Shown: positions 15,505 through 63,361 of the stretch, piece after piece | Layout of the letters: each line of letters starts with the position of its first letter | Numbering within the stretch: the stretch's first letter is position 1 | NCBI GenBank assembly: GCA_964613815.1 | Contig: CAZTKG010000002.1 | Coordinates: forward strand, 118,299-182,298 | Direction of reading: 5' to 3' | DNA: 64,000 nucleotides | Source: an uncultured Gammaproteobacteria bacterium | GTDB taxonomy: Bacteria > Patescibacteriota > Patescibacteriia > UBA9934 | Notes under the pieces: model-generated | Database searches by the model: none | Told to the model about the DNA's origin: nothing | The model's input: the letters and a program-made list of their open reading frames with translations, nothing else | Made by a program: the position numbers and the translations under genes

Positions 15505-15599
15505 GTCGACAATTCTTGTTCGGCTGTTACGCTCCTGATGATTCAGGGGCGTTTCTTATTGGAGGATTTTTTGATTTGGTTGCGTGGTATGATGGTGGC

Positions 15600-17379: not shown

Positions 17380-17423
17380 TGTCTCACTGAAGGTTTTTTT
17401 TAGATATGCTAAACTAAGGCCCT

Positions 17424-18395: not shown

Positions 18396-18411
18396 TTATT
18401 GAATATTTGAT

Positions 18412-18891
18412 ATGTCTACGTGTATTTTTCCGGGGAAGTTTCAGCCGTTTCATAACGGGCATATGCTTGTTGTTAAGGGGATGATGAAGGCTTGCGGGCG
18501 AGTTGCGATTGTGATTTGTGATGACAGTGGTGAGGATATGTTGTTTAGCTCGGAGAAGGTGCGGGAGATGATTAGTGCGGCGCTTCTTGATGAGGATATT
18601 GTGGATGCGGAAATTGTGGTGGTTGAGGATTGTGATACGGATGAGGAGTGGGCGGATAAGATTCTTGAGGCTTGCGATCGGCCTGATGGAGCGAAGGTTT
18701 GGAGTGGGCATGAGGATGTTCGGGCGCTTTTTGAGAAGATGGGGGTTGCTGTGCAGAAGGTTGTTCCGGTGCCGGGGATTGATAGTGGGGAGATTCGGGA
18801 GATGATTTTGAGCGGGAAGAAGACTTGGGAGAAAAAGGTTCCCGGGGATGTTGGACGGTTGATTCGTGTGCAGATGGCGGATTCGGAGTAG
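18412..18891 (+). CDS. Nicotinamide-nucleotide adenylyltransferase-like cytidylyltransferase (archaeal NMNAT type)
   Basis: The G(K)FQPFHNGH motif is the (H/T)xGH nucleotidyltransferase signature. ~160 aa, as for archaeal NadM-type NMNAT. Confidence 0.6.
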   Translation: MSTCIFPGKFQPFHNGHMLVVKGMMKACGRVAIVICDDSGEDMLFSSEKVREMISAALLDEDIVDAEIVVVEDCDTDEEWADKILEACDRPDGAKVWSGHEDVRALFEKMGVAVQKVVPVPGIDSGEIREMILSGKKTWEKKVPGDVGRLIRVQMADSE

Positions 18892-18907
18892 AGTTGTTGT
18901 TTGTTGA

Positions 18908-18936
18908 TTGACAAAATGCCACGTTCGTGGTATTTT
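18908..18936 (+). promoter_or_regulatory. Sigma70-like promoter TTGACA-N17-TGG-TATTTT
   Basis: Same architecture as 5272, 15207 and 19255. Confidence 0.45.
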
Positions 18937-18957
18937 TTGGTTGTCTTGGAGGTTATT

Positions 18958-19170
18958 ATGGCCAAAAGACGCGGTAAAAGGCCGCAAAATCCTGGGAAAC
19001 CAGGTCAGGAACGGGCTCGAGAGACTTCTCGTCTCGAATGTCCAAGTCCTGTTCGTCGTAATCCCGTTGCTTTGCTTGCGCTTCGGCGTCATGGTGGGGT
19101 AATGGATTCTAAGCGCGGTAAGCGGGGGTACCGTAGACGCGCAAAACATCAGAACCGTGGAGAGATTTGA
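18958..19170 (+). CDS. Small highly basic protein (70 aa; ~30% R/K)
   Basis: Strong GGAGG RBS and ATG at 18958. The composition resembles nucleic-acid-binding or ribosomal-like small proteins, with no motif recognised. Confidence 0.3.
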   Translation: MAKRRGKRPQNPGKPGQERARETSRLECPSPVRRNPVALLALRRHGGVMDSKRGKRGYRRRAKHQNRGEI

Positions 19171-19254
19171 TGCTTTCGCTTTCAATCGTGCACGCCTTGA
19201 ATGAGGCGTGTTTCGCATTTTTGAGGATTTTTGGGTGTTTTTGTCTAGTTTATC

Positions 19255-19283
19255 TTGACAAAATGGGGTTTTTATGGTATGTT
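19255..19283 (+). promoter_or_regulatory. Sigma70-like promoter TTGACA-N17-TGG-TATGTT
   Basis: Same architecture as above. It lies upstream of the GC-rich cassette array. Confidence 0.45.
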
Positions 19284-19388
19284 TGTCTGTTGTATTTTTT
19301 AAAAAATGATGAGAAATGTGTTGATTTTTCAGGGATATTTAGCGACTCTCCTCCTAAATATGCCTGTTCTATCAATCTGAGGTGAAAT

Positions 19389-19787
19389 TTGAGTTTTGTT
19401 GCGTTTTTGATCGCTGCAGCCGCGATGGTGGCGCCCAAGAAGGGTATCGCTGGCGTGTTCTCGCGGCGGGCAAAGTCTGTGCCGATGACGACGGTGTCGT
19501 ATCAGCAGGGGCTGGATATGCTGCTTGGAATGGGTGGCGACGGCGCGTTGTCTTGCTGGGTCGATTCTGGGGTGCGCGTTGACGTGCTTCGGGACGGTCA
19601 GCATGATGGAACCGTGTGGCTGGAGGCGGACTCTAGCGATTACGGTTTTGATCTCGGAGCGCTTTTGAGCTGGGGTGTTAGCCATGAGATGAATGTTCGG
19701 CTTCGGTCGGTTGTTTCTCAGGGTGAAGTCTTCCAGCTGTCTGATGACGCTGCTTTGTGCAGCGTGTATCGGGTGCACTTCCGTTAA
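19389..19787 (+). CDS. Small hypothetical protein, cassette 1 of GC-rich array (TTG start, or ATG at 19425)
   Basis: GC-rich codons with C-ending preference, a hydrophobic N-terminus, and a downstream CTCCGCGCA-ATTG-TGCGCGGAG terminator. Confidence 0.4.
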   Translation: MSFVAFLIAAAAMVAPKKGIAGVFSRRAKSVPMTTVSYQQGLDMLLGMGGDGALSCWVDSGVRVDVLRDGQHDGTVWLEADSSDYGFDLGALLSWGVSHEMNVRLRSVVSQGEVFQLSDDAALCSVYRVHFR

Positions 19788-19793
19788 CGCTTG

Positions 19794-19832
19794 GGTCTCC
19801 GCGCAATTGTGCGCGGAGGCCTGGACTCTTTT
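19794..19832 (+). terminator. Cassette terminator hairpin CTCCGCGCAATTGTGCGCGGAG + T-run
   Basis: A perfect 9-bp stem with an ATTG loop and TTTTTT. Related hairpins follow each cassette (20383, 20863, 21374). Confidence 0.7.
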
Positions 19833-19902
19833 TTGAAGAGATGAATGTGTCCATTTATGTGGATGCGAAATTTTTTCAATTCAATCTGCATGGAGGTAAA
19901 TC

Positions 19903-20361
19903 ATGCGTTTGTTCTTGTATAGCATGGCCCTTTGGGGTTGTGCTGAGATGATGCATTCGTCTGGCGAAGAGGTGGTCGTGGCTGCTGAAGTGCCTGTGAA
20001 CGTTCGTCCGGAAGGGCATGTTGAGCTGGTTTCGGGAGTGTATGCTCCCGATGATACCCTCATCAATTTCATGGGACGGACAAGCCTGGATCACTTCGAG
20101 GAAGTGGTTCGAGGTGGTTCCGGTCGACGGGTCACGGCTTGTCGGATAGAGTCCTTCTGGCTTCTTCGCGGCTATTCAATGCCGATCTCATCTGCGAGGC
20201 CGCGTCAATCCGAGATTTCGACGGTTGTCGACATGCTGGACTGGCTCACTGGTCCGCTTCCGGCTCCGACTGTCATGTCGGTTGATGTGTATCGCTTGGC
20301 CAGTGACTGTCTCATCATCGAGGTGGACTGGCAGGGCGTTCACGGCATCGACGTGGACTAG
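19903..20361 (+). CDS. Small hypothetical protein, cassette 2 (152 aa)
   Basis: Conserved leader ...GCATGGAGGTAAATC-ATG, a hydrophobic N-terminus (MRLFLYSMALWGC) and GC-rich codon usage. Confidence 0.45.
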   Translation: MRLFLYSMALWGCAEMMHSSGEEVVVAAEVPVNVRPEGHVELVSGVYAPDDTLINFMGRTSLDHFEEVVRGGSGRRVTACRIESFWLLRGYSMPISSARPRQSEISTVVDMLDWLTGPLPAPTVMSVDVYRLASDCLIIEVDWQGVHGIDVD

Positions 20362-20382
20362 GTTCGCCTGTTCCTTCGTGGT

Positions 20383-20420
20383 CCCTCGCGCAGCGTGTGC
20401 GAGGGGCCGAGACTCTTTTG
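20383..20420 (+). terminator. Cassette terminator hairpin CCCTCGCGCA-GCGT-GTGCGAGGG + T-run
   Basis: Sequence inspection. Confidence 0.6.
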
Positions 20421-20491
20421 TTGAAGTGATAGATGTGCTTGCCATTAATTTGGTGAGTGAATCGTTTCTTCAACCGCATGGAGGTAAAACC

Positions 20492-20842
20492 ATGCTCGAG
20501 ATGTTGTACGCTGTGCTTTTGGCACATTCCGTTTCCGTTCCTGTCGTCGATATCGTGCCTGGTGAAATGACTCATCAGGACTTGATCGACGAGGCGATGG
20601 AGGGTGGAGATCCGAAGCTCGTCACCTGTCCGATGAAGATCGAGGGCCAGGCGGTCGATTTGATCCAGGCTCTCGGCCAGTGGCCGGCGCCGGTGCTTGC
20701 CATCGTCGTCCCCCGGGACACGATGGATCTCGGGGAGGCCGAGCAGCACTTCATCGTCGACGGAATTCGGCCGACGCTGTACGATGCCGCCTATGTCGAC
20801 ACGGTCGACGGGCAGTGCGTGGTGGCAGCGTACGGCTGGTAG
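20492..20842 (+). CDS. Small hypothetical protein, cassette 3 (116 aa), paralog of cassette 4
   Basis: Conserved leader ...GCATGGAGGTAAAACC-ATG. PVVDIVPGEMTHQDLIDEAMEGGDP aligns with PVADVGADEVIDMYEFAMEIGPHGP of cassette 4. Confidence 0.5.
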   Translation: MLEMLYAVLLAHSVSVPVVDIVPGEMTHQDLIDEAMEGGDPKLVTCPMKIEGQAVDLIQALGQWPAPVLAIVVPRDTMDLGEAEQHFIVDGIRPTLYDAAYVDTVDGQCVVAAYGW

Positions 20843-20862
20843 AGCTGTTTCAATCTTGGTTT

Positions 20863-20905
20863 GCCCCCGCGCGATTGTGCGCGGGGGCGGCCACCGATTC
20901 TTTGT
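20863..20905 (+). terminator. Cassette terminator hairpin GCCCCCGCGCG-ATTG-TGCGCGGGGGC
   Basis: Perfect 11-bp stem, ATTG loop, T-rich tail. Confidence 0.65.
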
Positions 20906-20974
20906 TTGATGGCATAATGATGGTAATCCCTCCTGGGGTTATCGGTCTCGTTTCATCAATCGATGGAGATTCTA

Positions 20975-21349
20975 ATGAATCCAGTTCTTGCGGCATGTGC
21001 CGCTTCGTTCCTTCAGTGTCTGGGCGGCCACGGTCGTCCGGTGGCGGACGTGGGTGCCGATGAAGTCATCGACATGTACGAATTCGCGATGGAGATTGGC
21101 CCGCACGGGCCGTTCGCGATCGTGTGCGATCGTGTGCATCGGCGCGTGGACGTCAAGGTCTACGATGTGCGGGGCGATTTGCTCCGCGCGACCGAGTTCA
21201 ACGGTGAGGGTTTCGCCACGTGGTGGGACATGCTGTCTCTCGTGTCCGGCGATTTCGCCTACGCGCTCGATGGTGGGTTCGTGACCACCACCAAGCACGG
21301 TATCTGTGCTGAGGTGTGGCTCCTGCCGAGTCCGGGACCCCTTCGTTAG
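20975..21349 (+). CDS. Small hypothetical protein, cassette 4 (124 aa; or from ATG 20963)
   Basis: GGAG RBS before the ATG at 20975. It is homologous to cassette 3 and GC-rich. Confidence 0.45.
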   Translation: MNPVLAACAASFLQCLGGHGRPVADVGADEVIDMYEFAMEIGPHGPFAIVCDRVHRRVDVKVYDVRGDLLRATEFNGEGFATWWDMLSLVSGDFAYALDGGFVTTTKHGICAEVWLLPSPGPLR

Positions 21350-21373
21350 TCGGGCAACGATGTTTGCTCGATG

Positions 21374-21402
21374 CCTCCCGCGTTTGTTCGCGGGAGGTTT
21401 TA
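21374..21402 (+). terminator. Cassette terminator hairpin CCTCCCGCG-TTTGTT-CGCGGGAGG + T-run
   Basis: Sequence inspection. Confidence 0.65.
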
Positions 21403-21433
21403 AGTTTGAAGAAAAAAATCCACCCTTGTTGAT

Positions 21434-21823
21434 CTACTTGATGTTGATTCGGTAGGTCAGGGTGGTGACTTGGTGCATCTCTTTGGCGATTTTGGCGGCA
21501 CAGGGTTCGATGGGGCCGTCTGTCAGCGCGTGTTTGATGGAAGTCAGAGGCGCTTTTTCCGAGTCGGCTGCGCGTTGGAGTGTGATTGAGACTTGACCGA
21601 CTCTGTTTGTCATGGCGCATGCGATTGCGATGATTTCCATGATTTTATGGAGCGCCTTGAGGCGACCAAGTTTGTCGGTTGCGGGGATGTTTCCGCAAGC
21701 GTCCCAGAGATTTGCTTCGCGGGAGGGGGAGACGGCGGATCTGGTGAGGGTTGCCGTTTGCTCCTCGAAGTTGATACGGATGCTGAGCTCTTCGCCGTTT
21801 TGGAATGCGAAGGAGTTGATCAT
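21434..21823 (-). CDS. Hypothetical protein (129 aa)
   Basis: Clean ORF with no motif recognised. GC-rich like the adjacent array. Confidence 0.35.
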   Translation of the reverse strand: MINSFAFQNGEELSIRINFEEQTATLTRSAVSPSREANLWDACGNIPATDKLGRLKALHKIMEIIAIACAMTNRVGQVSITLQRAADSEKAPLTSIKHALTDGPIEPCAAKIAKEMHQVTTLTYRINIK

Positions 21824-50602: not shown

Positions 50603-51109
50603 ATGAAAATTCCCAAAGACCTAGTTCAAGAACTTAAGGATATTCATCAAGAAAAGACAGGTAAAACGTTGAGTAATGAAGACGCGCTTGAGGGAGCAAA
50701 CAACTTAACCAATTTCGCCAAGCTTCTACTGGACTGTGCTGAGCGCGATCGTAAACGTAAACTGCAGCTCAAAGAGTCGCCAAAGGGTTTCCATCTTCCC
50801 GAAGGAGAACGTTACAATTGTTTCATTTGCCACAATGTAGTTTCAGGAGAATCAAGTTGGTACAGCAAGCACGGGATCACGTGTCTTATTTGCAAGGAAG
50901 CTTTGAGGAAGCGAGTCATTCCAGTGAGTGTCATGCGCAATCGTGATAGCTGGTTAGCGATGTGGGAAGTGAAGAAGCTTCTTGTACTACACCACTCCAC
51001 CATACTAAAAATGATCCGCACTGGTAAACTAAAGGCGCGGATCATTAAAAATGGAGAGCGTGATTACTTTTGGGTGTTTTTGAAGAAAGAGAATCGTCTA
51101 CTCACCTAA
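50603..51109 (+). CDS. Zn-ribbon (CxxC...CxxC) protein with C-terminal HTH-like segment (possible excisionase/MerR-like regulator)
   Basis: CFICHN...CLICKE zinc ribbon. [17 protein letters not shown] resembles a MerR/Xis-type HTH. The gene is AT-rich. Confidence 0.4.
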
Positions 51110-52306
51110 GTCGGCGTCACCATCTGAAAGTTCTTCAAACTTAGCTGTCATTGTAGGATTGCCTCGTGTCAATTTTTTAATCGTCAGATCTTCCGCCTTA
51201 TTATTGGCGAGACGCAGGTTGTTTTCAGAAGACAGGAGGGCCGCCTTAGTCTTTTGAAGATGATTGATTGTTTTATCGATTTCATCAATGGCAGTTTTGA
51301 ATCTACGACTCGCAAGATCGTAGTTTTTTGCGAACCCTTCCTTAAAGACGTTTATCCGATCTTCAAAATTTGTAATGTCCACATTTTGGCTTCGCATCAA
51401 AGCAAGTTCTGCTTTGTATTCGAGAGAGTTCATTGCGGCGTTGCGGAGCAGTGTAATCATCGGAATAAAGAATTGCGGACGAACTACGTACATCTTAGGG
51501 TATTTATGAGACACGTCGACAATACCTGTGTTATACAGTTCATTTTCGGTCTCCAAGAGCGTTACCAGAACAGCATATTCACAATTTTTCTCTGTGCGGT
51601 CTTTATCAAGCTCACGTAAAAAGTCTTCGTTCTTTTTCTTTGTGGCAGTTTCATCGCCTTCATTTTTCATTTCGAACATGATAGAAGTAATTTCATTCCC
51701 AGCTTCGTCGGTTTCCCGATAAATGTAATCGCCCTTACTTCCGGTTTTGGAATCATTATCCTTTTCAAAATATGCATTTTGAAAAGCAGTTGCACGGAGT
51801 TTGTTGAACTCAGTTTCACAATGCTGTTCCAGGGTCTCCCCAAGCATTTTGGTGCTGAGTTTTAATTTCATGTCCTTGTAACGCTCAATCATTTCATCCT
51901 TTGACTTTAATTCATTTTCATACTTTTCCTTCATAGAAACTTCGCGCAGCTCCATTTCATGCTCCTTGCTTTGCAACTTATTCTTGAGATGGTCTCGTTC
52001 TTTTTCGATGGAATTAACTGCCTCTGTTACGGCGAGTTTTTTCTCAAGAGCCTCACTCTCCATTTTTGACTTGAGAGAAGCTATCTCGGAGTCTTTTTTT
52101 ACAAGGTCTTCCTGCATTGAATTCTTTAGATTGGCCTCAGCGAGTTTCACGGCATCTTCTTGCTGTCTCTCGGCTAAAGATAGGCGATCATGCAGTTCTT
52201 TTTCAAACTGATCGTCACGAACTTGTTTGAGAATATCCGCGAACCCAGCTTCATCTACTTTGAAAGTCTTTTTACAGTGCGGGCAATTGATGGTTTGGTC
52301 GGTCAT
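51098..52306 (-). CDS. DUF2130-like protein: N-terminal Zn-ribbon (CPHC), long coiled coil, C-terminal globular domain
   Basis: [19 protein letters not shown]... then a ~200-aa coiled coil and a C-terminal KGDYIYRE...[12 protein letters not shown] segment, consistent with the DUF2130 architecture. Confidence 0.5.
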
Positions 52307-52399
52307 ACAGGGTTTGGTTTATTGGTTAGAAACTTGACGCATCTCTTGTTTATGGTAATATCACGTTCAGATATAAGTGTCAAACTCTGAATAAGAAAT

Positions 52400-53281
52400 A
52401 TGCAATCAATACCCTCTCAGGATCAAGCTTTGCTCAATCTGGGCAAAATCAACGGCTGGATTGACTCCTCACCTGTCGCAACCGTCATGCGCCATTCTAT
52501 GGCAAATTTAGCATTTGAGCTTACAAAAGCAGATCTTCAAGTAGAAATCGACATTGGTAACCTGCTTTCAATCTCTGATTCTCCAATTACATCAAAACGA
52601 TTCAAGAAAGTCTTTCTCGATCCTCTTGTGGGAAATGATTATGCTGTGGTCTTACAAAAAGTCCATCAACAAATATTCGCACAGAGTGAAGGGTATCAAT
52701 TTCAACCAGGGCAATTGCGATCGGAGAATACCCCTGGACAAATACAGGGCATTATTAACAAAATTGATGAGAGCAGTGATTCTCCATTCGCAAAGGCCCT
52801 AGATCTTCATAAGAATTTTCTAGACCTAAAACCATTTAATAACGGAAATGAAATCATTGCAGCTCTGCTACCAAATATATACCTAACTCATCGAGGTGTA
52901 ATGCTTGCGCCCATACTAAGCTTTCATAATTTCCCTGCACAAGGCGATGATGCAGATGAGTGGTTTCAAGACCAAACAAATCTTATCATCACTCTCTTGC
53001 ACGAAATTCGAGATTTGGAGCAAGAATACAAAAGTCGAACTAATGGATTTGCAACACAGCGTAAAAAACTTTTCTCAGGACTTTTGCCTTTTATGATGAA
53101 ACGTCCGAAGTTTACGATTCAAGAATTACTGGATGAATATGGACAAAGTACATATCAAACCATTAATGAACTATTCAAAGATCTGGTAAAGCTCAATGTG
53201 CTAAAGGAGCTTACGGGAAATGCGCGGTTCAGAGTCTTTCACCTTCACGAATATTCAAATCTTTTCAAAACAATCGTATGA
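52400..53281 (+). CDS. Fic/DOC-family-like protein with degenerate active-site motif (KPFNNGNE in place of HPFx[DE]GNGR)
   Basis: Fido-like length and helical pattern, with the motif-like segment LDLKPFNNGNEIIAALL. It sits just upstream of hsdM, a position frequently occupied by Fic genes in Type I R-M loci. Confidence 0.45.
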   Translation: MQSIPSQDQALLNLGKINGWIDSSPVATVMRHSMANLAFELTKADLQVEIDIGNLLSISDSPITSKRFKKVFLDPLVGNDYAVVLQKVHQQIFAQSEGYQFQPGQLRSENTPGQIQGIINKIDESSDSPFAKALDLHKNFLDLKPFNNGNEIIAALLPNIYLTHRGVMLAPILSFHNFPAQGDDADEWFQDQTNLIITLLHEIRDLEQEYKSRTNGFATQRKKLFSGLLPFMMKRPKFTIQELLDEYGQSTYQTINELFKDLVKLNVLKELTGNARFRVFHLHEYSNLFKTIV

Positions 53282-55317
53282 CAAATTTCAAAGATAAGAC
53301 TCAGCTCATTTGGAGTATTGCAGATATTCTCCGTGGTGGATGGAAGCAACATGAGTATCAAGATGTCATTCTTCCTCTTGTTGTTATCAAGCGTTTAGAT
53401 CTCCTCCTCTCCTCAACAAAGAAGTCTGTGCTCGAGCAATATAACGAGCTAAGTGGAGAGATTAATGACCTTGATCCAATTCTCAAGGCAACATCTGGAG
53501 TCGGTTTTTATAATATCTCTGAATATGACTTTGAGTCACTTCTTGAAGACCCTGCTGGCATTGCACAGAACTTTAGAAATTATTTAAACAAGTTTAGTGA
53601 AAATATTACTGACATTATTGAGAAGTTTGATTTTGATCGTCAGCTAGATCGTCTTGATGGAGGAAATCTCTTGTATGAAATTATAAAGGTCATAAATAAA
53701 GTTGACCTTCATCCGGATCGTGTAGACAATCATGAGATGGGGTCCATCTTTGAGGAGCTTATTAGAAAATTTGCGGAACAATCGAATGAGACCGCTGGGG
53801 AGCATTACACGCCACGCGATGTGATTAAAGTCATGGTCGAAGTTCTCTTCGCACCAGACCAAAAAAAACTCCAAAAAGAACATCTTATTAAAACCGTCTA
53901 CGATTGTGCTTGTGGTACTGGTGGGATGCTCTCTGTTGCAAAGGATCACATAAAAGATGAGATTAAAAGTGATGCAGACATCTACCTTTACGGACAAGAG
54001 CTCAACCCTGTCACCTACGCTATGTGTAAGGCGGACATGCTGATTAAGGGTGAGGACCCGAATAATATTAAAGGTGGAGAAAAAGATCATTCACTGGCAA
54101 GCACACTTGCAAATGATCAGTTTTTTGGAAAGGACTTTGACTATATGCTTACAAACCCTCCTTTTGGAGTGGATTGGAAAAAAGACAAGCAAACTGTTGA
54201 GCGAGAGGCTGAACGTGGATTTGCTGGGCGTTTTGGTGCGGGGACACCGCGTGTATCAGATGGACAATTGCTTTTTCTACAACATCTTATTTCAAAAATG
54301 AGACCAGAACATGATGGTGGGTCGCGCTTAGGAATTGTTTTTAATGGCTCACCACTATTTACTGGTGATGCAGGAAGCGGAGAGAGTGAAATTCGTAGAT
54401 GGATTTTAGAGAACGATTGGCTTGAAACAATAATCGCGCTTCCTGATCAGCTATTTTTCAACACAGGTATCCCAACATACCTTTGGTTTATTACGAACCG
54501 AAAATCAGATGAGCGTAAAGGTAAGGTGCAGATTGTAGACGCTCGAGGCTTCTGTAAAAAAATACGAAAGAGTCTCGGAAACAAACGTAATGAGATTACG
54601 GAAGATGATCGGAAAAAGATCATTGAACTTTATTCGTCATTTGAAGAAAATGAACACTCAAAGATTTTCAACAATGAAGACTTTGGATACCGACAGATCA
54701 CCGTGGAACGACCTCTTCGATTGAACTTTCAGGTAAATGAGGAGCGGTTGAAAAATCTGACCTTGGATAAATTTCTCACCACTGGTGAAAAAAAAGCAAC
54801 AAAATTACAACTACAGCGAGCTGCTATTTGTCGAATATTAACCAATGCAGTTTTACCGAAGATGTCAAAAAAACTGTACAAAAATCGTCAGGAATTTATC
54901 AGTGACCTGACCGATACATACAACTCCATTGGTGATCTAGATACTCCACTACCACAGCCGATATTAAAAGCAGTGATTGAATCACTTTCAGAACAGGATG
55001 ATACGGCAGATATTTGTATGGACAGCAAGGGCAACTCTGAAGCACATGCAAGCTTACGTGACACAGAAAATATTCCACTCGATCAAAATATTCAGGAGTA
55101 TTTCAATAAAGAAGTAAAGCCTTATGTTACGGATGCTTGGATCAATGAAAGTAAAAAAGATCACAAGGATAAAAAGATCGGGAAAGTTGGATATGAGATT
55201 CCTGTGACAAGATTTTTTTACAAATACAATACCCCAAGATCATTGAAAGATATTGAAATCGATATTCAAAAAACAGAGCAAGAGCTTGTTGATCTTCTTA
55301 AACAGATGTCTGTATGA
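53278..55317 (+). CDS. hsdM: Type I restriction-modification system, methyltransferase (M) subunit
   Basis: N-terminal HsdM domain (LIWSIADILRG), AdoMet motif I (DCACGTGGML) and motif IV NPPFG (LTNPPFGVDW). Confidence 0.9.
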   Translation: MTNFKDKTQLIWSIADILRGGWKQHEYQDVILPLVVIKRLDLLLSSTKKSVLEQYNELSGEINDLDPILKATSGVGFYNISEYDFESLLEDPAGIAQNFRNYLNKFSENITDIIEKFDFDRQLDRLDGGNLLYEIIKVINKVDLHPDRVDNHEMGSIFEELIRKFAEQSNETAGEHYTPRDVIKVMVEVLFAPDQKKLQKEHLIKTVYDCACGTGGMLSVAKDHIKDEIKSDADIYLYGQELNPVTYAMCKADMLIKGEDPNNIKGGEKDHSLASTLANDQFFGKDFDYMLTNPPFGVDWKKDKQTVEREAERGFAGRFGAGTPRVSDGQLLFLQHLISKMRPEHDGGSRLGIVFNGSPLFTGDAGSGESEIRRWILENDWLETIIALPDQLFFNTGIPTYLWFITNRKSDERKGKVQIVDARGFCKKIRKSLGNKRNEITEDDRKKIIELYSSFEENEHSKIFNNEDFGYRQITVERPLRLNFQVNEERLKNLTLDKFLTTGEKKATKLQLQRAAICRILTNAVLPKMSKKLYKNRQEFISDLTDTYNSIGDLDTPLPQPILKAVIESLSEQDDTADICMDSKGNSEAHASLRDTENIPLDQNIQEYFNKEVKPYVTDAWINESKKDHKDKKIGKVGYEIPVTRFFYKYNTPRSLKDIEIDIQKTEQELVDLLKQMSV

Positions 55318-56564
55318 ACAAACTTGAGCGATTGAAATTTTCGGTGAACATCAATCCGAGCAAAAAAGAGATTCCAAATTTACCAGATGATACAGATGTT
55401 GCCTTTTTGCCTATGGAAGCTGTTTCAACGAAGGGTAAAGTAAAGCCAGTTACACGCAGCTTGTGCGAGGTGTCACAAGGGTATACATATTTTCGAGATG
55501 GGGATGTCGTGATGGCAAAAATTACTCCTTGTTTTGAGAATGGTAAGGGTGCGGTCATACAAAAGCTTTTGAATGGATTCGGATTTGGTTCAACGGAATT
55601 TGTTGTATTCCGTCCTCAAAATATAGACACCAAGTATCTATATTACATAATTTCATCTAATCATTTTAGAAAAACGGGAAAGATGGAAATGCGTGGATCG
55701 GCAGGGCAACAGCGTGTGCCAGAAACGTTTATTTCAAATTATCTTATTGAAAAAATATCTATTAGTGAACAAAAAAAGAGGGTTAATTTTCTCGATGAGA
55801 AGACGGTGTTAATTGATGTGGTTATAAAAAAGAAACAGAAACAGATTGAGCTCCTTAAAGAAAAACGTGCTGCTCTTATTGCTCAGTCTGTTACAAAAGG
55901 ACTTAATCCGAATGTGAAGATGAAAGATTCTGGTGATGAGTGGATCGGTGAGATTCCTGAAGAATGGAAAATGCTTAAACTCAAGCAACTAACTAATCAT
56001 CCTTTTCAGTACGGTTTGAACGAATCCGCGATTGAAAACATTTCAGGTGACCCTAGATATATTCGTATTACAGATATTGATGCCGATGGGGGTTTACGAA
56101 ATTCCTCAATCAAAACCATGAGCAAGGTCAAAGCTAAAGGATATTTCTTAAAAGATGGAGATATGTTATTTGCGCGATCTGGAGCAACAGCTGGCAAATC
56201 TTTTATCTATAAGGAAAGATATGGAGCAAGTTGCTTTGCTGGATACTTAATCCGATTCATGCCAGATCGAAGAAAACTATTGCCCGATTATATTAACTTT
56301 ATCACTCAATCTACCTATTACGAGAACTGGAAGGACAGTATTTTTATTCAATCTACTATTCCAAATATTAGCGCGGACAAGTATAAGGGTTTTTTAGTCC
56401 CGGTTCCCTCAGTAGATGAACAGGAAGAAATAGTGACATATCTGAATCAGAATACCGAAATTATTGATATGACAATCAGTAAGATTCAAAAGTCGATCAA
56501 ACTAATTCAAGAATATCGTTCCTCACTAATCTCGCATGCGGTGACTGGAAAAATTGTTGTATGA
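55314..56564 (+). CDS. hsdS: Type I restriction-modification system, specificity (S) subunit
   Basis: Two target-recognition domains separated by a conserved central helix, with a C-terminal conserved repeat. Its start overlaps the hsdM stop. Confidence 0.85.
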   Translation: MNKLERLKFSVNINPSKKEIPNLPDDTDVAFLPMEAVSTKGKVKPVTRSLCEVSQGYTYFRDGDVVMAKITPCFENGKGAVIQKLLNGFGFGSTEFVVFRPQNIDTKYLYYIISSNHFRKTGKMEMRGSAGQQRVPETFISNYLIEKISISEQKKRVNFLDEKTVLIDVVIKKKQKQIELLKEKRAALIAQSVTKGLNPNVKMKDSGDEWIGEIPEEWKMLKLKQLTNHPFQYGLNESAIENISGDPRYIRITDIDADGGLRNSSIKTMSKVKAKGYFLKDGDMLFARSGATAGKSFIYKERYGASCFAGYLIRFMPDRRKLLPDYINFITQSTYYENWKDSIFIQSTIPNISADKYKGFLVPVPSVDEQEEIVTYLNQNTEIIDMTISKIQKSIKLIQEYRSSLISHAVTGKIVV

Positions 56565-58318
56565 GCTTGAGTGGTAAGAAAAATTTTTCGATCTACAAAG
56601 CCAAACAGGGTGTGGTTGATCAATTTTTGAATTCGGAAGACTCCTTAGATGATCATATTTTAGGTCTTTTAAATGAGCGGAAAGCCAAAACAAAACAATA
56701 CAGTTCGTTCGAAGTCCAACTTGATGACGATGTGCAAGAAAATTGGAGCATCTCCCTCAGTCATAGAGTGCACAGCAGTCATAGTAGCTGGAATACAATT
56801 TTACAAAGTTTAAATCAGGGCATTGATGCATTGTCACGAGATGAGCACGACTTCATTATTAGTGTTTTTAACGGTGAGGCGATTTACTTTGTTTCAGGTG
56901 GTTATGCATATAACGATTTAATCGATTTTGTAGATATCAATTTTCCTTTGGAACTTTTGAAACGAATTGTCGATCCATCTGCTATTAAGGCTGCAAAAAG
57001 TCGGGCGCTCACGGGTCAGTTTTTTGCCAAAGATTTGTACTTTCGTGGGCCGGCTTCAATCGCGGGCGTCGAGGGATTCGGTCAGGTTTGGAAGGAAGTA
57101 CATGCACGTTTGGACGAAGATTTTTTAAACGATCCTGACATTGTTTCGATTTTCGGATCCGTAAAGAAGATCAATGTTACGACAAAAGCAAATTTTCAAA
57201 TAAAGAGAAAAATTGACTTTGCTGGCTTATTGTCATTAATAGAAAAGCTACATCAGTATTTGCAAAGAGTCCTTGATCCTGATGTTAAACATTTATTCTC
57301 GTTCTTGGATGGCGTAGAACTTGTACGCAGTGGTCAGCTGAAAGCGAAACTAGCAAAACACGTTTCAGAAATCTGTTTAGATAACATGGTGAATGATACT
57401 AGATACGATTTTGATGTAAGTCATAGGAATTACGAGAAGTATTTCAGTGCTGATGTTTATGTGCTTATAAAAGATCGTTCCCGCCTACAGGAATTTCAAC
57501 ACGAGCCTACATATAATGAAATCATTGATGTTCTGAATAGCGAAGTTTCTGATTTAGAGGAACTCGGAAAAGTGAACCTAAAATCAGAACATGAGTTAGA
57601 ATATGAGGATACTTCTGGTTCTTTTAACTCACATTTACATGGAGAAATAGAACTAGAAAATCAAAAGTATTTCCTGATTGATGGAGATTATTATCGAGTG
57701 AATACTTCATTTCTGGATTTTGTAAAAAGACAATACGACACACGTATCATCAATGGCTGTTTGAGCGACCAATCTGTATTGTCGTCTCTAACATTAAATT
57801 CCGGATGGCTTGAGGCGGACTATAATGAAGGTTTCGTGAATGATTCTGGTGTCATCGTTGGTGACAGATTCCTTTACAAGAACATCGAGTTATTTGATCT
57901 GCTTGCAGCGAATCACGAAGAGAAAAAGATATATGTTTTCCAGAATAAGATTGGTATTGGAGCTGGTACAAGAGATGCTTGCTCTCAGATTAGAAATGCG
58001 GCCAACATAATTTCTCAAATGCAGGTCGAGAGGGATGATACCTCGGTGAAGGATTTGTTCTCAAAAATTTCCGTTAGTAATGTTAGTTATGCAGGAGTAA
58101 AGATCTCTGAACAAACAGGCATGCTTGGCGAGGATGACTTTGTTAATCTATTTAGAGGCGAGTACGAAATTATATATGTACTTAATTTGTTAAAAACTGA
58201 TATCGATAAGGTTAAGCAAACGGAATCAAATATCGCAAAATTTGAAATCTTGTCTTTGGAAGAGCACCTGAAAACAAAAGGAGCATCTCTCATAATATTA
58301 GCAACGAATTTAGATTGA
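56561..58318 (+). CDS. Uncharacterised 585-aa protein embedded between hsdS and hsdR (candidate R-M-associated defence/abortive-infection gene)
   Basis: Its start (ATGA) overlaps the hsdS stop and its stop overlaps the hsdR start, so it is translationally coupled. No Walker A/B, no PD-(D/E)xK or HEPN motif recognised by eye. Confidence 0.75.
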   Translation: MSLSGKKNFSIYKAKQGVVDQFLNSEDSLDDHILGLLNERKAKTKQYSSFEVQLDDDVQENWSISLSHRVHSSHSSWNTILQSLNQGIDALSRDEHDFIISVFNGEAIYFVSGGYAYNDLIDFVDINFPLELLKRIVDPSAIKAAKSRALTGQFFAKDLYFRGPASIAGVEGFGQVWKEVHARLDEDFLNDPDIVSIFGSVKKINVTTKANFQIKRKIDFAGLLSLIEKLHQYLQRVLDPDVKHLFSFLDGVELVRSGQLKAKLAKHVSEICLDNMVNDTRYDFDVSHRNYEKYFSADVYVLIKDRSRLQEFQHEPTYNEIIDVLNSEVSDLEELGKVNLKSEHELEYEDTSGSFNSHLHGEIELENQKYFLIDGDYYRVNTSFLDFVKRQYDTRIINGCLSDQSVLSSLTLNSGWLEADYNEGFVNDSGVIVGDRFLYKNIELFDLLAANHEEKKIYVFQNKIGIGAGTRDACSQIRNAANIISQMQVERDDTSVKDLFSKISVSNVSYAGVKISEQTGMLGEDDFVNLFRGEYEIIYVLNLLKTDIDKVKQTESNIAKFEILSLEEHLKTKGASLIILATNLD

Positions 58319-61272
58319 TTATGACTACTAACATAAAAGAAATTGGATTTGAGGAGTTTATTGAACAATTCCTCGTTGAGCAAAATGGATACAGATCTCG
58401 TCCAGCAAGTAAATATCTGAAGAATCTCTGCATGGATTGGGAGGCGGTTTTAGAATTTATTGAAAACACTCAATCCGAGAAATTGGATCGCTTGATGGAA
58501 ATCCATGGCGATCAGATCAATGACAAATTGTTTAATAGGTTGGATAAGGAGATTCGTGAGCGCGGGACTTTGGATGTGCTTCGTAACGGTTTTTCAGATC
58601 ATGGGCAAAATATAGATCTCGCATATTTCAAACCAAACTCTGGGATGAATCCTGACAGTCAACGTTTGTATGATGGAAATATCTTGAGTGTCATGCGGCA
58701 GGTGCATTACAGCACACAGAATGAAAACTCTATTGATATCATTTTGTTTTTGAATGGACTACCTATTTTTACAGTTGAGTTGAAAAATCAATTAACGGGA
58801 CAGACTGTAAAGAATGCGATCCAGCAATATCGTGTTGATCGTGATCAAAAAGAACCGCTACTGCAGTTTAAACGCTGTCTTGCTCACTTTGCTGTTGATA
58901 CCGAATTGGTTTATATGACCACGCAATTGCGAGGGCTTAAAACATTCTTCCTGCCATTTAATAAAGGTTATCAAAATGGTGAAGGAAATCCGCCGGTAGA
59001 AAATGGGTACAAAACGTCTTATCTTTGGGAAGATGTGTGGCGGAAGGATAGTGTTTTAGAGTTGGTAAAGAAATTCATCAATATTCAAGTAGAGATAAAG
59101 GAAGATGAGCGTGGTAGACAATACCGTGATGAAAAGCTTATCTTTCCTCGTTACCACCAACGTGACACCGTAAAACGATTGGTGGAAGGCTCACAACAGA
59201 ATGGATCAGGGCAAAATTATTTGATCCAACACAGTGCTGGGAGTGGAAAGAGTAATACAATCGCGTGGACCGCTCATAGGCTTTCCGAGCTTTATGGAGA
59301 TGATAACAAGAAAGTTTTTGACACCATTCTTGTGATCACAGATCGGCGTGTCCTTGATAAACAATTGCGGGATACGATCATTCAGTTTGAACAAGTACAA
59401 GGTGTTGTAAAACCAATAACAGAGAGTTCTTCAGAGTTAAAAGAGGCTCTTGAATCCGGAGAAAAGATCATTATTACAACGTTGCAAAAATTTCCGTTTA
59501 TCATAGATGCGATTGAATCTATTCCAGGGAGGAACTTCGCGGTACTGATTGATGAGGCACATTCTTCTCAGTCAGGTGATCAGGCAGCTCAATTGCGTGA
59601 AGTACTTCAGGTAGACAATTTGGATGACGCCGAGACTCAAGAGGAATCATTTCTTCCAGAAACAAGCGAAGACAAAGTTTTAAAGAAGCTTCGAAGTCGT
59701 AAGGTAAAAACACCGAATATAAGTTTCTTTGCGTTTACAGCTACTCCAAAGCAAAAGACACTCGAATTATTTGGAACAAAAAATCCTTTGGACGGAAAAT
59801 ATTATCCGTTTAGTTTGTATTCCATGAAGCAGGCAGTTGAAGAAGGGTTTATTTTAGATGTGCTGAAAAATTACACAACGTATAAAGCCTTCTTTAATTT
59901 ATTGAAATCAATTGAAGATGATCCTGAGTTTGAGAAAAGTAAGGCACAGAGACTTCTAGTTGGATATGTCGAAAAACACGAACATGCTATCGCAAGAAAG
60001 ACTGAAGTCATGGTAGAACATTTTCGAAATCGCATTGCAAAGCAAATTCATGGAAAGGCAAAATCAATGGTTGTAACAAAGTCACGTTTGCATGCTGTTC
60101 GTTACAAACAGGCTTTTGATAAATACTTGTCGGAGCATAATTACCCATTCAAAACACTGGTTGCATTTTCAGGGACTGTACGTGATGGTGATGAGGAGTA
60201 TACAGAAGCACAGATGAACGGTGTTTCCGATCAGGTTACTGCTGAGGAATTTAAAAAGGATGGTTATAAATTTTTGATTGTTGCGGAAAAGTTTCAGACA
60301 GGTTTCGATCAGCCATTACTCAACGCAATGTATGTGGATAAAAAATTGAGTGGTGTTGGTGCAGTTCAGACATTGGGTAGATTGAATCGATCGCGCTCCG
60401 GTAAGAATGAGGTATTTGTTTTGGACTTTGTAAATGAGATGGAAGAGATTAAGGAAGCTTTCCAGCCCTACCACATCACAACTGTGCTTTCTGAGGGGAC
60501 AGATCCAAACCTGTTACATGACCTAGAGAGAGATCTTTATGCCTACAAACTTTTCACCCAGCATGAGGTGGCTGGATTTGTAAGTGATTTTTTACGTGGT
60601 GCTGGACCTGACAAAATCAATTCGGTACTAGATGTTGTAGTTGATAGGTTTTTGGATGAAGCAACAGAAGTTCAGAATGATTTTAAAAAGAAATGTAAGG
60701 AGTTCGTACGTCGGTATGCATTTGCTTCACAGATCATTCCGTTTGAAAGCACTGAACTGGAAAAATTATTCATGTTCACAAAGTTGCTTTCAAAAAAATT
60801 ACCTAGGTCAAAAGAAGAATTGCCAATTGAGGTTTTGGAGAGTGTTGATATTGAATCATATAAATTACTCGAACAAACAAAAGGGACCATTAAATTGGAT
60901 TCAGAAGATGGTGAACTTGAACCAATGCAGAGTGGCGATACGCAAAAAAAACTTGAAGAAAAGGAATCGCTGTCGACTATTGTAAAAGAAATAAACGACA
61001 GATTTGGGACAGAGTTTACCTCAAAAGATGTTGTAATAATTAATCAGTTGGGTGAGCGACTTGTTGAAGATGCGTCATTGCAGGGATCTATAAAAACAAA
61101 TTCAATTGACACTGCAAAGATAAAATTTGATCAAGTCTTGCAAACAGAGTTGGTGGGTATGTTGAAACAACACATGGACTTCTATAAAAAGCTGGATAAG
61201 AACCCTGAGCTCAAGTCATATTTTGGAGACAGGATGTATAGTCATGTACGTAAAGAGGTTGTCAAAAATTAG
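58315..61272 (+). CDS. hsdR: Type I restriction enzyme, restriction (R) subunit
   Basis: N-terminal nuclease region, SF2 helicase motifs (GSGKSNT Walker A, DEAH-like DEAH at VLIDEAHSSQ, QTLGRLNR motif VI) and a C-terminal helical domain. Confidence 0.9.
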   Translation: MIMTTNIKEIGFEEFIEQFLVEQNGYRSRPASKYLKNLCMDWEAVLEFIENTQSEKLDRLMEIHGDQINDKLFNRLDKEIRERGTLDVLRNGFSDHGQNIDLAYFKPNSGMNPDSQRLYDGNILSVMRQVHYSTQNENSIDIILFLNGLPIFTVELKNQLTGQTVKNAIQQYRVDRDQKEPLLQFKRCLAHFAVDTELVYMTTQLRGLKTFFLPFNKGYQNGEGNPPVENGYKTSYLWEDVWRKDSVLELVKKFINIQVEIKEDERGRQYRDEKLIFPRYHQRDTVKRLVEGSQQNGSGQNYLIQHSAGSGKSNTIAWTAHRLSELYGDDNKKVFDTILVITDRRVLDKQLRDTIIQFEQVQGVVKPITESSSELKEALESGEKIIITTLQKFPFIIDAIESIPGRNFAVLIDEAHSSQSGDQAAQLREVLQVDNLDDAETQEESFLPETSEDKVLKKLRSRKVKTPNISFFAFTATPKQKTLELFGTKNPLDGKYYPFSLYSMKQAVEEGFILDVLKNYTTYKAFFNLLKSIEDDPEFEKSKAQRLLVGYVEKHEHAIARKTEVMVEHFRNRIAKQIHGKAKSMVVTKSRLHAVRYKQAFDKYLSEHNYPFKTLVAFSGTVRDGDEEYTEAQMNGVSDQVTAEEFKKDGYKFLIVAEKFQTGFDQPLLNAMYVDKKLSGVGAVQTLGRLNRSRSGKNEVFVLDFVNEMEEIKEAFQPYHITTVLSEGTDPNLLHDLERDLYAYKLFTQHEVAGFVSDFLRGAGPDKINSVLDVVVDRFLDEATEVQNDFKKKCKEFVRRYAFASQIIPFESTELEKLFMFTKLLSKKLPRSKEELPIEVLESVDIESYKLLEQTKGTIKLDSEDGELEPMQSGDTQKKLEEKESLSTIVKEINDRFGTEFTSKDVVIINQLGERLVEDASLQGSIKTNSIDTAKIKFDQVLQTELVGMLKQHMDFYKKLDKNPELKSYFGDRMYSHVRKEVVKN

Positions 61273-61281
61273 CCGCTGTCT

Positions 61282-61956
61282 ATGTTGAAAAGTACCGAAC
61301 ACATCCTCAGGGAAGCATCTGAAAATTTTGCCAAATCCATAGCACAAATACAGGAGCCTTTTAAGAAATTTGAAAGAACCATTGCATCATTTACAGAACC
61401 TATTCGAAAATTTGAGGAGCAAATAAAGCAACAACAAGATGCATTTGCTCAAATGAATAAATTTTTGGCCGCTGTTGATCTACCCAAAATAGTCGCTAGC
61501 GACATATTAGATGCATGGGCTGTTCAAGGCGTAGATATTGATGAATATGTTGAAAACTCTGCTGAGCTTGCAGAAGATTTGAGTTACGATTTTGCTGAAT
61601 CTCTTGAGGAGGTCATTGAAAAGCATTCAAAAGAAACTGGCACCACTCAAATTCGACTTACCTCCAATGGAAGAATGTTTCATATTGATTCCCCTGATAA
61701 GGACCATGAACTATCTGAACAAATGGAAAAATTCTTTCGTGCACTGAAGAAAGGGTTTACTGCAACAGACAAACTTGTCACTGTGAGCGGCTATGCGACT
61801 GAGCGCAGTCTACGAACTGCGGCCAATAAGTTGAATCGTTTAGGTCGCGGAAAATTAGGTTTGAGCGTTCCGATTGCCGTTGGTAAGCGAGGAAAGGGCT
61901 ACAGATTGGGGAGGCGTATTCATGTTCATAGGTTACCAAACAAGCTCGATAGATAG
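61282..61956 (+). CDS. Hypothetical protein (224 aa) downstream of hsdR
   Basis: Clean ORF with a basic C-terminal tail (GRGKLGLSVPIAVGKRGKGYRLGRR). Followed by a strong terminator. Confidence 0.45.
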   Translation: MLKSTEHILREASENFAKSIAQIQEPFKKFERTIASFTEPIRKFEEQIKQQQDAFAQMNKFLAAVDLPKIVASDILDAWAVQGVDIDEYVENSAELAEDLSYDFAESLEEVIEKHSKETGTTQIRLTSNGRMFHIDSPDKDHELSEQMEKFFRALKKGFTATDKLVTVSGYATERSLRTAANKLNRLGRGKLGLSVPIAVGKRGKGYRLGRRIHVHRLPNKLDR

Positions 61957-61972
61957 ATACAGTGGATAACTA

Positions 61973-62007
61973 ACAAAAAATCACCTAACTTTAGGTGATT
62001 TTTTGTT
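61973..62007 (+). terminator. Rho-independent terminator AAAAAATCACCTAACTTTAGGTGATTTTTTG
   Basis: Perfect hairpin with T-run. Confidence 0.8.
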
Positions 62008-62089
62008 AGCGAGACTAGATGGGTGCTGTATGTCCGATGTACGAGACTAAATGGGATGATTCCTTTGTAAATCACTTAAAACAAGGAAT

Positions 62090-63361
62090 ATGTCCACAGA
62101 GATTTCAATTCAATACATCAGCATTGATGTTCTTAAATCGGCAGAGTACAACCCTCGTTCTTGGGATGAACATGCGAAAGAGAAACTTAAAGCAAGTATC
62201 AAACAGCACGGATTCTGCGATCCGATTATTGTGAACGGCTCATCAGAACGGAAGAACATTATTATTGGTGGACACTTTCGAACCGAGTGTGCACGCGAGC
62301 TAGGATTCACGGAAGTCCCCGTTGTATACGTCAACCTCACTCTTGAACAAGAAAAGGCGCTCAACCTTCGTCTTAACAGAACGGGTGGAGAATGGAACTT
62401 CGAGATGCTAAAAGAATTCGATATTGGCTTGCTTTTGGATGTCGGATTTGATGATCAAGACCTCTCAAACATCTGGGATGACATCCTACCTATTGAAGAT
62501 GATGACTTTAATGTCGAGGAGACCGTTAACGACACAAGAGAACCCACCACCCAACCTGGCGATCTGTTTCAGCTCGGGAATCACCGTCTTCTCTGTTCAG
62601 ATTCGACAGACATTGAATCAGTAAAACGTCTCGTTGGAAACCAGAGGATCGACATGATCTTCTGCGACCCTCCGTACAACATTGGGTTCAGTTATAAAAA
62701 TGGACTTACAACAAAAGGAAAATACGGAGGCAAGATAGACGATTCAAAAACAGATGAGGATTATCGGAAATTCATTCAATCCACCATGGTCAACGCTCTT
62801 GCAGTGACGAAGTCTGATTCACACGTCTTCTATTGGTGTGATCAGAAATATATCGGACTCATGCAATCTCTGTACGAGGATCTCGGTGTTGTAAACAGAC
62901 GTGTGTGTCTATGGATCAAAAATAATTTCAACATGACGCCACAGGTTGCGTTCAACAAAGCATACGAGCCCTGTGTCTACGGCACGGTCGGTTCACCGTA
63001 TCTCAATCCGGATGTGACGAATTTGCATGAAATTACCAACAAAGAAGTTGCTTCGGGCAATCGGTGCCTTGATGACATTATTGATCTGTTTGACATCTGG
63101 TTAGCGAAACGCGATAGCGCCAATGAGTACCAACACCCTACGCAAAAGCCCTTAACGCTCTGTGAGAAGCCCCTAAGGCGTTGCACAAAACCTGGAGACA
63201 ACGTCCTGGACTTGTTCGGGGGTAGCGGTAGTGTGTTGCTGGCTTGTGAACAGATGAAGCGTCGAGCATTTATATGTGAGTGTGATCCAGTTTTTTGTGA
63301 CGTAATCCTGCGCCGCTTCGAAGAAATGACCGGTATCAAGGCTAAGAAAATAAATGACTAA
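62090..63361 (+). CDS. ParB-like nuclease domain fused to a DNA methyltransferase (N6-adenine/N4-cytosine, beta-class)
   Basis: N-terminal ParB/Srx-like domain (IIVNG...IIGGHFR). The methyltransferase domain has a DPPY motif (IFCDPPYNIGF) and AdoMet motif I (LDLFGGSGSVLLA). Confidence 0.8.
   Translation: MSTEISIQYISIDVLKSAEYNPRSWDEHAKEKLKASIKQHGFCDPIIVNGSSERKNIIIGGHFRTECARELGFTEVPVVYVNLTLEQEKALNLRLNRTGGEWNFEMLKEFDIGLLLDVGFDDQDLSNIWDDILPIEDDDFNVEETVNDTREPTTQPGDLFQLGNHRLLCSDSTDIESVKRLVGNQRIDMIFCDPPYNIGFSYKNGLTTKGKYGGKIDDSKTDEDYRKFIQSTMVNALAVTKSDSHVFYWCDQKYIGLMQSLYEDLGVVNRRVCLWIKNNFNMTPQVAFNKAYEPCVYGTVGSPYLNPDVTNLHEITNKEVASGNRCLDDIIDLFDIWLAKRDSANEYQHPTQKPLTLCEKPLRRCTKPGDNVLDLFGGSGSVLLACEQMKRRAFICECDPVFCDVILRRFEEMTGIKAKKIND

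Follow-up and report, generated by a model that had tools for sequence, protein, structure and literature searches.

A DUF6119 family protein with a predicted nuclease domain, encoded in the hsdS-hsdR slot of a Type I restriction-modification operon

What might be the function of a gene lodged between the specificity and restriction subunit genes of a Type I restriction-modification (R-M) operon, where some bacteria carry an anticodon nuclease? The question is raised by ORF585, an open reading frame (ORF) in a stretch of 64,000 nucleotides (the window) from an uncultured bacterium assigned to the Patescibacteriota in GTDB (contig CAZTKG010000002.1, positions 118,299 to 182,298, assembly GCA_964613815.1). 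ORF585 starts with ATG and encodes 585 amino acids (aa) on the plus strand, at 56561..58318 in the ORF listing, which is exactly where an earlier note, made from the letters of the window, had placed a gene between hsdS and hsdR. That note had compared the slot to that of prrC in the Escherichia coli prr locus (hsdM-hsdS-prrC-hsdR), and the position is indeed the same. It had proposed that the product, in which no family was recognized, is an abortive-infection effector guarded by the R-M complex. The explanation somewhat favoured here is that ORF585 is a candidate for an autonomous anti-phage nuclease and rides, as cargo of the operon, on an integrated mobile element.

Family membership and predicted fold of ORF585

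Profile scores place ORF585 in the DUF6119/TIGR04141 family, with 77.8 bits against Pfam DUF6119 (PF19614, cut-off 27) and 58.6 bits against NCBIfam TIGR04141, the 'sporadically distributed protein' (cut-off 35). As both values exceed the curated cut-offs, the gene can no longer be called unrecognised. An earlier word-indexed search for homologues had returned 3 matches only, and an exhaustive search was therefore needed. Using phmmer against 1.84 billion representatives of a library clustered at 50% identity, 514 clusters were found at E ≤ 1e-3 and 265 at E ≤ 1e-10. The family thus searched comprises about 500 clusters at 50% identity and is spread over candidate phyla radiation bacteria, Firmicutes, Chlamydiae, and many metagenomic lineages. 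Most members listed are stand-alone proteins of 570–640 aa, about 590 aa. ORF585 resembles the others in this length class, in being a single polypeptide, and in possessing all the family-invariant residues. It is nevertheless divergent, the nearest cluster being 37% identical. The source records of the relatives carry one name only, "DUF6119 family protein".

Conservation was examined in an alignment of 128 sequences. Five residues are invariant and all are present in ORF585: E443, D446, K463, R471, and Q476. E418 and S556 are each found in 127 sequences, and D435 in 103, with His at this position in 24. Position 461 is occupied by His in 104/128 sequences and by Gln in 20/128. ORF585 has Gln, and reads QxK at 461–463 where HxK is commoner in the family. 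The local family motif can be written hhhD(K/R)-x7-IE(L)(C/F)D-x~14-hhh(H/Q)xK-x7-RDxxSQ.

The AlphaFold2 model obtained with this alignment is confident, with a predicted local distance difference test score (pLDDT) of 92.2 and a predicted template modelling score (pTM) of 0.87. Residues 418–545 are predicted to form an α-β-β-β-α-β core, which is canonical for the PD-(D/E)xK superfamily. The structural matches of the C-terminal domain include N.BspD6I (score 7.9), FokI (7.5), NucS (7.4), Upx (6.8), the small subunit of R.BspD6I (6.7), Cas4 (6.7), the CdiA-CT DNase toxins (6.6 and 6.4), and BamHI (6.4). HamA, Card1, OkrAI, the Avs3 nuclease, BglII, McrC, and Shedu SduA rank lower. The closest matches are catalytic domains of restriction endonucleases. 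In the PDB, Foldseek returned nothing below E = 0.001, the ORF585 sequence had no match, and the family profile matched only a fragment of PCNA with E = 0.07, which was taken as noise.

On the basis of the model, the C-terminal ~180 residues are predicted to be a PD-(D/E)xK (restriction-endonuclease-like) nuclease domain, a fold that the earlier note had not seen in the sequence. E418 is on helix 1, D446 opens strand 2, (Q/H)461-x-K463 lies in strand 3, and R471 and Q476 are on the following helix. The invariant D446 and K463 thus occupy the canonical positions of the superfamily. Position 461, where the superfamily motif calls for Asp or Glu, is His or Gln. Some restriction enzymes are known in which an acidic residue has migrated. 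In the modelled active site, E443, which precedes D446 by three residues, and E418 may make up for the missing carboxylate. The N-terminal ~400 residues would form a family-specific module for substrate or nucleic-acid binding, or for sensing.

Other identities were considered and discarded. A HEPN RNase was ruled out, as the Rx4-6H matches sit at arginines that are not conserved, and a membrane Abi protein was ruled out by the lack of a hydrophobic segment, ORF585 being taken as soluble. A degenerate half of HsdS was likewise rejected, ORF585 having no Methylase_S match and only DUF6119 proteins appearing in BLAST comparisons; the earlier note had likewise seen no TRD-like repeats by eye.

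The slot between hsdS and hsdR and its mobile setting

ORF585 is the fourth gene of a six-gene operon (Fic-like, hsdM, hsdS, ORF585, hsdR, orf224; Table 1). According to Pfam and NCBIfam, hsdM, hsdS, and hsdR are all present, intact, and co-oriented. The junctions are overlapping or near-abutting, and the genes are almost certainly co-transcribed. A scan for internal promoters and terminators revealed nothing beyond chance within the operon. The sequence GTATGA is found at three junctions: Fic-like/hsdM, hsdM/hsdS, and hsdS/ORF585. The last one is a true 4-nt ATGA overlap (gttgtATGAgc), which likely couples the translation of ORF585 to that of hsdS.

An ATGA overlap had been described at both ends of the gene. 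It exists at the start but not at the stop. The ORF585/hsdR junction reads ...ttagaTTGAttATGactact, with TGA at 58316–58318, then tt, then ATG at 58321. An in-frame TTG at 58315, given as the hsdR start in the mechanical ORF list (985 aa), would yield a TTGA overlap. The start of hsdR is placed at 58321, because three lines of evidence agree. A stop codon, 2 nt, and ATG precede hsdR in two closely related operons, the N-terminus is common to both (MTTNIKEIGF and MPTNTKEIGF), and public gene calls on identical contigs have hsdR begin 3 nt past the last base of ORF585.

These two operons, L030 and L031, were chosen for comparison among thousands of HsdR relatives, their HsdR being 84% identical to that of the window. 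The gene order is DUF2130, Fic-like, hsdM, a 120-aa ORF, hsdS, a 233-aa ORF, hsdR, and a 441-aa ORF in L030. It is Fic-like, hsdM, a 179-aa ORF, hsdS, a 417-aa ORF, hsdR, ParB, two methylases, and GIY-YIG/DUF4357 in L031. The 233-aa and 417-aa genes that fill the hsdS-hsdR slot are related neither to ORF585 nor to one another. The former encodes a protein with an N-terminal membrane helix, and the latter a protein with coiled-coil repeats and C-terminal membrane helices; for both, Pfam and PADLOC gave no usable match. The conserved C-terminus of HsdS, ...IQEYRSSLISHAVTGKIVV, is common to the window, L030, and L031, and homology with the window ends where hsdS ends. It is lost at the last hsdS codons and is back at the ATG of hsdR. 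Because the slot genes are unrelated and homology is broken exactly at these two points, ORF585 is considered from the alignments to be one of several interchangeable cassettes.

The operon itself appears from its gene content to be carried as cargo, either by an integrated mobile element or by the remnant of a prophage. This status is proposed because a large terminase gene, methylase genes, a GIY-YIG gene, and a large serine recombinase gene lie past the operon (Table 1). The genes found 3' of hsdR in L031 match this island. From ~50 kb on, the island has a GC content of 0.37–0.41 and a GC skew of about 0.13, the fall at this point being to 0.38–0.42 and to about 0.1, respectively. Over window positions 1–50000, the GC content is about 0.50 and the GC skew ranges from 0.17 to 0.54 per 2-kb bin, mostly 0.3–0.5. 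In this part of the window most of the longest ORFs are on the plus strand; so strong a skew is unusual. A protein identical to ORF585 is encoded on 14 metagenomic contigs, the longest of 579 kb, and the genes past the window's end are read from these.

Neighbourhoods of relatives and competing explanations

Relatives of ORF585 were examined in 14 independent contexts with usable flanks, picked by similarity rank and contig size, blind to content; the related-locus search used an 11-sequence alignment. In three contexts the gene lies inside or next to Type I R-M genes; its neighbours are other defence or methylase genes in five, and six have no defence context. The window holds the only embedded copy. 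The DUF6119 gene of L016 lies 142 nt upstream of an operon comprising DUF3761, a 162-aa ORF, and hsdR-hsdM-hsdS, and that of L036 lies 116 nt downstream of hsdM-hsdS-hsdR. L004 adjoins a Type II R-M system of the BsuBI/PstI type. L020 and L034 each adjoin a GajA/GajB-like gene pair, assigned to Gabija from the Pfam domains; TIR, DUF2971, helicase-DUF2726, and NB-ARC are also found in L034. Shedu is 2 kb away in L024. In L007, the gene is 2.3 kb upstream of an N6_Mtase/Eco57I-type (Type IIG-like) methylase, with one 525-aa ORF between. L013, L015, L017, L032, L006, and L025 have no recognised defence gene, and PADLOC and Pfam gave nothing usable for the other neighbour genes. A defence role is plausible because relatives are repeatedly found next to Type I R-M, Type II R-M, Gabija, and Shedu. 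The earlier note would have been undermined by homologues that are never associated with R-M; those examined recur beside both Type I and Type II systems.

The guarding proposed in that note would make ORF585 a latent toxic nuclease, bound and silenced by HsdMSR and freed to cause abortive infection when the complex is attacked by a phage anti-restriction protein such as Ocr, ArdA, or Stp. ORF585 does lie in the prrC slot, tightly coupled to hsdS by the ATGA overlap and co-expressed with the restriction complex like PrrC. PrrC combines an ABC-ATPase (P-loop) N-domain with an RNase C-domain. Unlike it, ORF585 has no Walker A and has a predicted PD-(D/E)xK domain. The absence of a P-loop had been pointed out before and stands, no [AG]x4GK[ST] motif being found; nor is there any ATPase, PrrC, or RloC match in Pfam, NCBIfam, or PADLOC, in agreement with the view that the protein is not PrrC- or RloC-like. 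It could still be imagined that DUF6119 proteins are a new class of DNA-targeting effectors linked in function to Type I R-M complexes, as a PD-(D/E)xK analogue of PrrC. HsdM/HsdS would then be the docking site of the N-terminal module, and the loss of restriction to a phage would set the nuclease free. Such a link would account for Type I R-M being the neighbour met most often (3/14: the window, L016, and L036), across DUF6119 proteins that are 26–33% identical and different HsdR subtypes. By a rough estimate, not a computed one, this frequency is above random placement. Yet 11/14 contexts have no adjacent hsd gene, and the nearest relatives (P0004, P0005, and P0007) stand alone. The slot of the closest operons contains unrelated membrane or coiled-coil proteins, and it therefore needs no partner adapted to HsdMSR. 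In L016 and L036 the gene flanks the hsd genes rather than lying among them, and relatives are mostly not embedded (1/14 embedded, 2/14 adjacent), whereas nearly all PrrC genes are embedded in Type I R-M systems according to Payne et al. 2024 (bioRxiv 10.1101/2024.01.29.577857). Of the earlier proposal, the defence effector thus remains plausible, relatives adjoining defence systems, but PrrC-like guarding is improbable, and the DNA-targeting analogue just outlined is regarded as equally improbable.

DUF6119 may alternatively be a housekeeping nuclease of the mobile element or prophage itself, in recombination, replication, packaging, or the exclusion of competitors, the hsd operon being merely a permissive insertion site. 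Mobile-element markers (large serine recombinases, terminase-like genes, ParB-methylase) occur in 9/14 contexts. A serine recombinase gene is the immediate neighbour in L006/L023 and L020; in L004, L034, and the island of the window, one lies close by. Homologues of the window's ParB-methylase (32–44% identical to the product of 62090–63361) are found 0.6–6.5 kb from DUF6119 in L007, L008, L020, L024, and L025; these are often accompanied by terminase-like genes. This recurrence suggests a common family of mobile elements with DUF6119 in the cargo region. However, the position and orientation of the gene relative to recombinase, ParB-methylase, and terminase vary, and it co-localises with cargo-type defence genes rather than with core modules. 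The L030 and L031 elements, which carry the closest operons, have no DUF6119 gene. No relative of ORF585 was found in a viral contig collection by a pattern scan, nor in deposited phages and plasmids by tblastn with two queries, ORF585 and one consensus-like family member. Service to the element is held to be unlikely, although less so than guarding.

The same degree of doubt attaches to a solitary restriction enzyme, either Type IV (modification-dependent) or Type II-like, that would cut DNA escaping the Type I enzyme in the manner of TgvAB or BrxU, and that would involve no triggered abortive infection. Such an enzyme would agree with the best structural matches, and a cognate methylase is neither fused nor strictly linked to the family. 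Type IV systems are moreover known to occur inside Type I operons (PMC11411939).

An autonomous anti-phage nuclease is preferred to these alternatives, and it has its own difficulties. No match was found for ORF585 among the models of PADLOC v2.0.0, including the HEC/PDC candidate models, or in PHROG. The literature searched contains no functional account of DUF6119 or TIGR04141, and no experiment on any DUF6119 protein; nor was a catalogue of defence systems found in which the family is listed. With His or Gln rather than Asp or Glu at the second acidic position of the motif, the activity or the chemistry may be atypical. Defence genes are absent from 6/14 neighbourhoods, and a function in the mobile element is conceivable instead, serine recombinases and ParB-methylases being frequent neighbours. 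Finally, the fusion to a USP-type deubiquitinase in Chlamydiae is not a defence-like architecture. All these points weigh against the preferred explanation.

This fusion was encountered in a distinct branch of the family, in metagenome-assembled genomes of Chlamydiae/Parachlamydiales, where DUF6119 is followed by a C-terminal USP-type ubiquitin hydrolase (PF00443) in proteins of 1270 and 1132 aa. The loci with DUF6119 and USP are L010 (5856–9668), L011 (6222–9620), and L028 (1206–4831); the two are adjacent separate genes in one metagenomic contig. The association could denote a host-directed effector, or a link with ubiquitin-like conjugation. Apart from these fusions, Pfam detected no informative fused domain in the long members of the family (817–1387 aa).

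Embedding of genes in Type I R-M operons, often as independent defences, has been documented (PMC11411939; Payne et al. 2024, bioRxiv 10.1101/2024.01.29.577857). TgvAB, from VPI-2 of Vibrio cholerae, is nested in a Type I operon and was shown experimentally to be a second defence (PMC11411939). ORF585 is nested in the same way, and its variable slot also fits the 'guilt-by-embedding' candidates of Payne et al. 2024. DUF6119, PF19614, and TIGR04141 were not found in the searchable text of the supplementary tables of that work, several of which are incomplete. TgvAB is a GmrSD-like Type IV system of two proteins, whereas ORF585 acts as one polypeptide and comes from an unrelated family. It has no sequence similarity to the PD-(D/E)xK defence nucleases, whether the single-protein Shedu SduA and Gao Upx or HamA of the two-protein Hachiman. 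The likeness to these is predicted to be limited to the generic nuclease core, the N-terminal region being unrelated.

Features of the operon and implications

The features of the locus are collected in Table 1. Promoter-like sites are not more frequent in the operon region than in shuffled sequence. The hairpin that closes the operon has a calculated RNA folding energy of −23.6 kcal/mol (z = −10.1), and none of 200 shuffled sequences was equally stable. The divergent DUF2130 gene may be part of the same module.

Table 1. Positions of the operon, of ORF585 and its parts, and of neighbouring features. Positions are those of the window unless stated otherwise.
Feature	Position	Strand	Description
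DUF2130 gene	51098..52306	-	Divergent, upstream of the operon; DUF2130 also in L030
Promoter-like site	52334..52361	+	TTGACG-16-TAATAT with TG, upstream of the first operon gene; consensus match only, weak evidence
Fic-fold gene	52400..53281	+	First operon gene; Pfam Fic 29.7 bits; degenerate active-site motif KPFNNGNEIIAA; SoFic-like C-terminal region
hsdM	53278..55317	+	Type I methyltransferase subunit; Pfam HsdM_N and N6_Mtase, E = 1.5e-64; 79% identical to HsdM of L030/L031
hsdS	55314..56564	+	Specificity subunit, 416 aa; Pfam Methylase_S
ORF585	56561..58318	+	DUF6119/TIGR04141 family protein
ORF585 N-terminal and middle region, aa 1–402	56561..57766	+	α+β modules; no convincing structural relative
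ORF585 C-terminal PD-(D/E)xK-type domain, aa ~405–585	57773..58318	+	Predicted
Candidate catalytic residue E418	57812–57814		
Candidate catalytic residue E443	57887–57889		
Candidate catalytic residue D446	57896–57898		
Candidate catalytic residues Q461-x-K463	57941–57949		
Candidate catalytic residues R471 and Q476	57971–57988		
hsdR	58321..61272	+	Restriction/translocase subunit, 983 aa; Pfam HSDR_N, SWI2_SNF2, ResIII, T1R_D3-like
orf224	61282..61956	+	Last operon gene; coiled-coil protein with basic C-terminus; only sub-threshold coiled-coil matches
Hairpin terminator	61970..62009	.	Perfect 18-bp hairpin between A and T runs; intrinsic (bidirectional), closes the operon
ParB_N and N6_N4 methylase fusion	62090..63361		Just past the operon
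Island past the window end	15530–21758 (locus coordinates, L001–L003)		Second methylase, 149-aa ORF, large terminase (Terminase_6C), GIY-YIG/DUF4357 gene, large serine recombinase

The PADLOC SoFic match of the Fic-like protein is limited to the C-terminal residues 189–289, and the active site departs from the HxFx(D/E)GNGRxxR consensus. A Fic-like gene also heads both L030 and L031, with 47–49% identity and equally degenerate motifs. The protein may be a regulator; it is probably not an AMPylase.

Two further positions of these operons vary. Between hsdM and hsdS, L030 (6605–6967) and L031 (5862–6401) have a second cargo slot. Its small products, of 120 and 179 aa, are unrelated, and a hydrophobic stretch in both suggests a membrane helix; hsdM and hsdS of the window overlap directly instead. 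The position after hsdR is also variable, because orf224 is found there in the window, an unrelated gene for the acidic 441-aa coiled-coil protein in L030, and no gene in L031. In HsdS of L031 (6398–7741), the second target-recognition domain shares 54% identity with the first one in the window HsdS, while the other halves differ. This pattern is taken, from the sequence comparison, as a sign of shuffling between related specificity subunits.

The following mechanism is proposed. The ORF585 cassette would have been inserted in the swappable hsdS-hsdR slot of a Type I operon carried by a low-GC mobile element, the operon supplying transcription and probably translational coupling. Once the N-terminal module is triggered, the C-terminal nuclease would cleave nucleic acid, most probably DNA. 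ORF585 would thereby add a second line of defence beside the Type I enzyme and act independently of HsdMSR, in a relationship like that described for TgvAB.

The catalogued family, the presence of defence genes within Type I operons, and PD-(D/E)xK effectors, which are the commonest kind, were already known, and nothing is overturned. New are a functional prediction for DUF6119 with named candidate catalytic residues, an apparent association with defence islands and Type I R-M, and an exact three-way exchange of cassettes in this slot. DUF6119 gains a testable annotation: a predicted nuclease effector, with candidate residues, in a swappable slot of a mobile Type I R-M operon. One more single-gene defence family would be added if an anti-phage role is confirmed. 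The locus would then also be a clean case, from nature, of cassettes exchanged within an R-M operon: between exact breakpoints, each of three related operons has a cargo unrelated to the other two.

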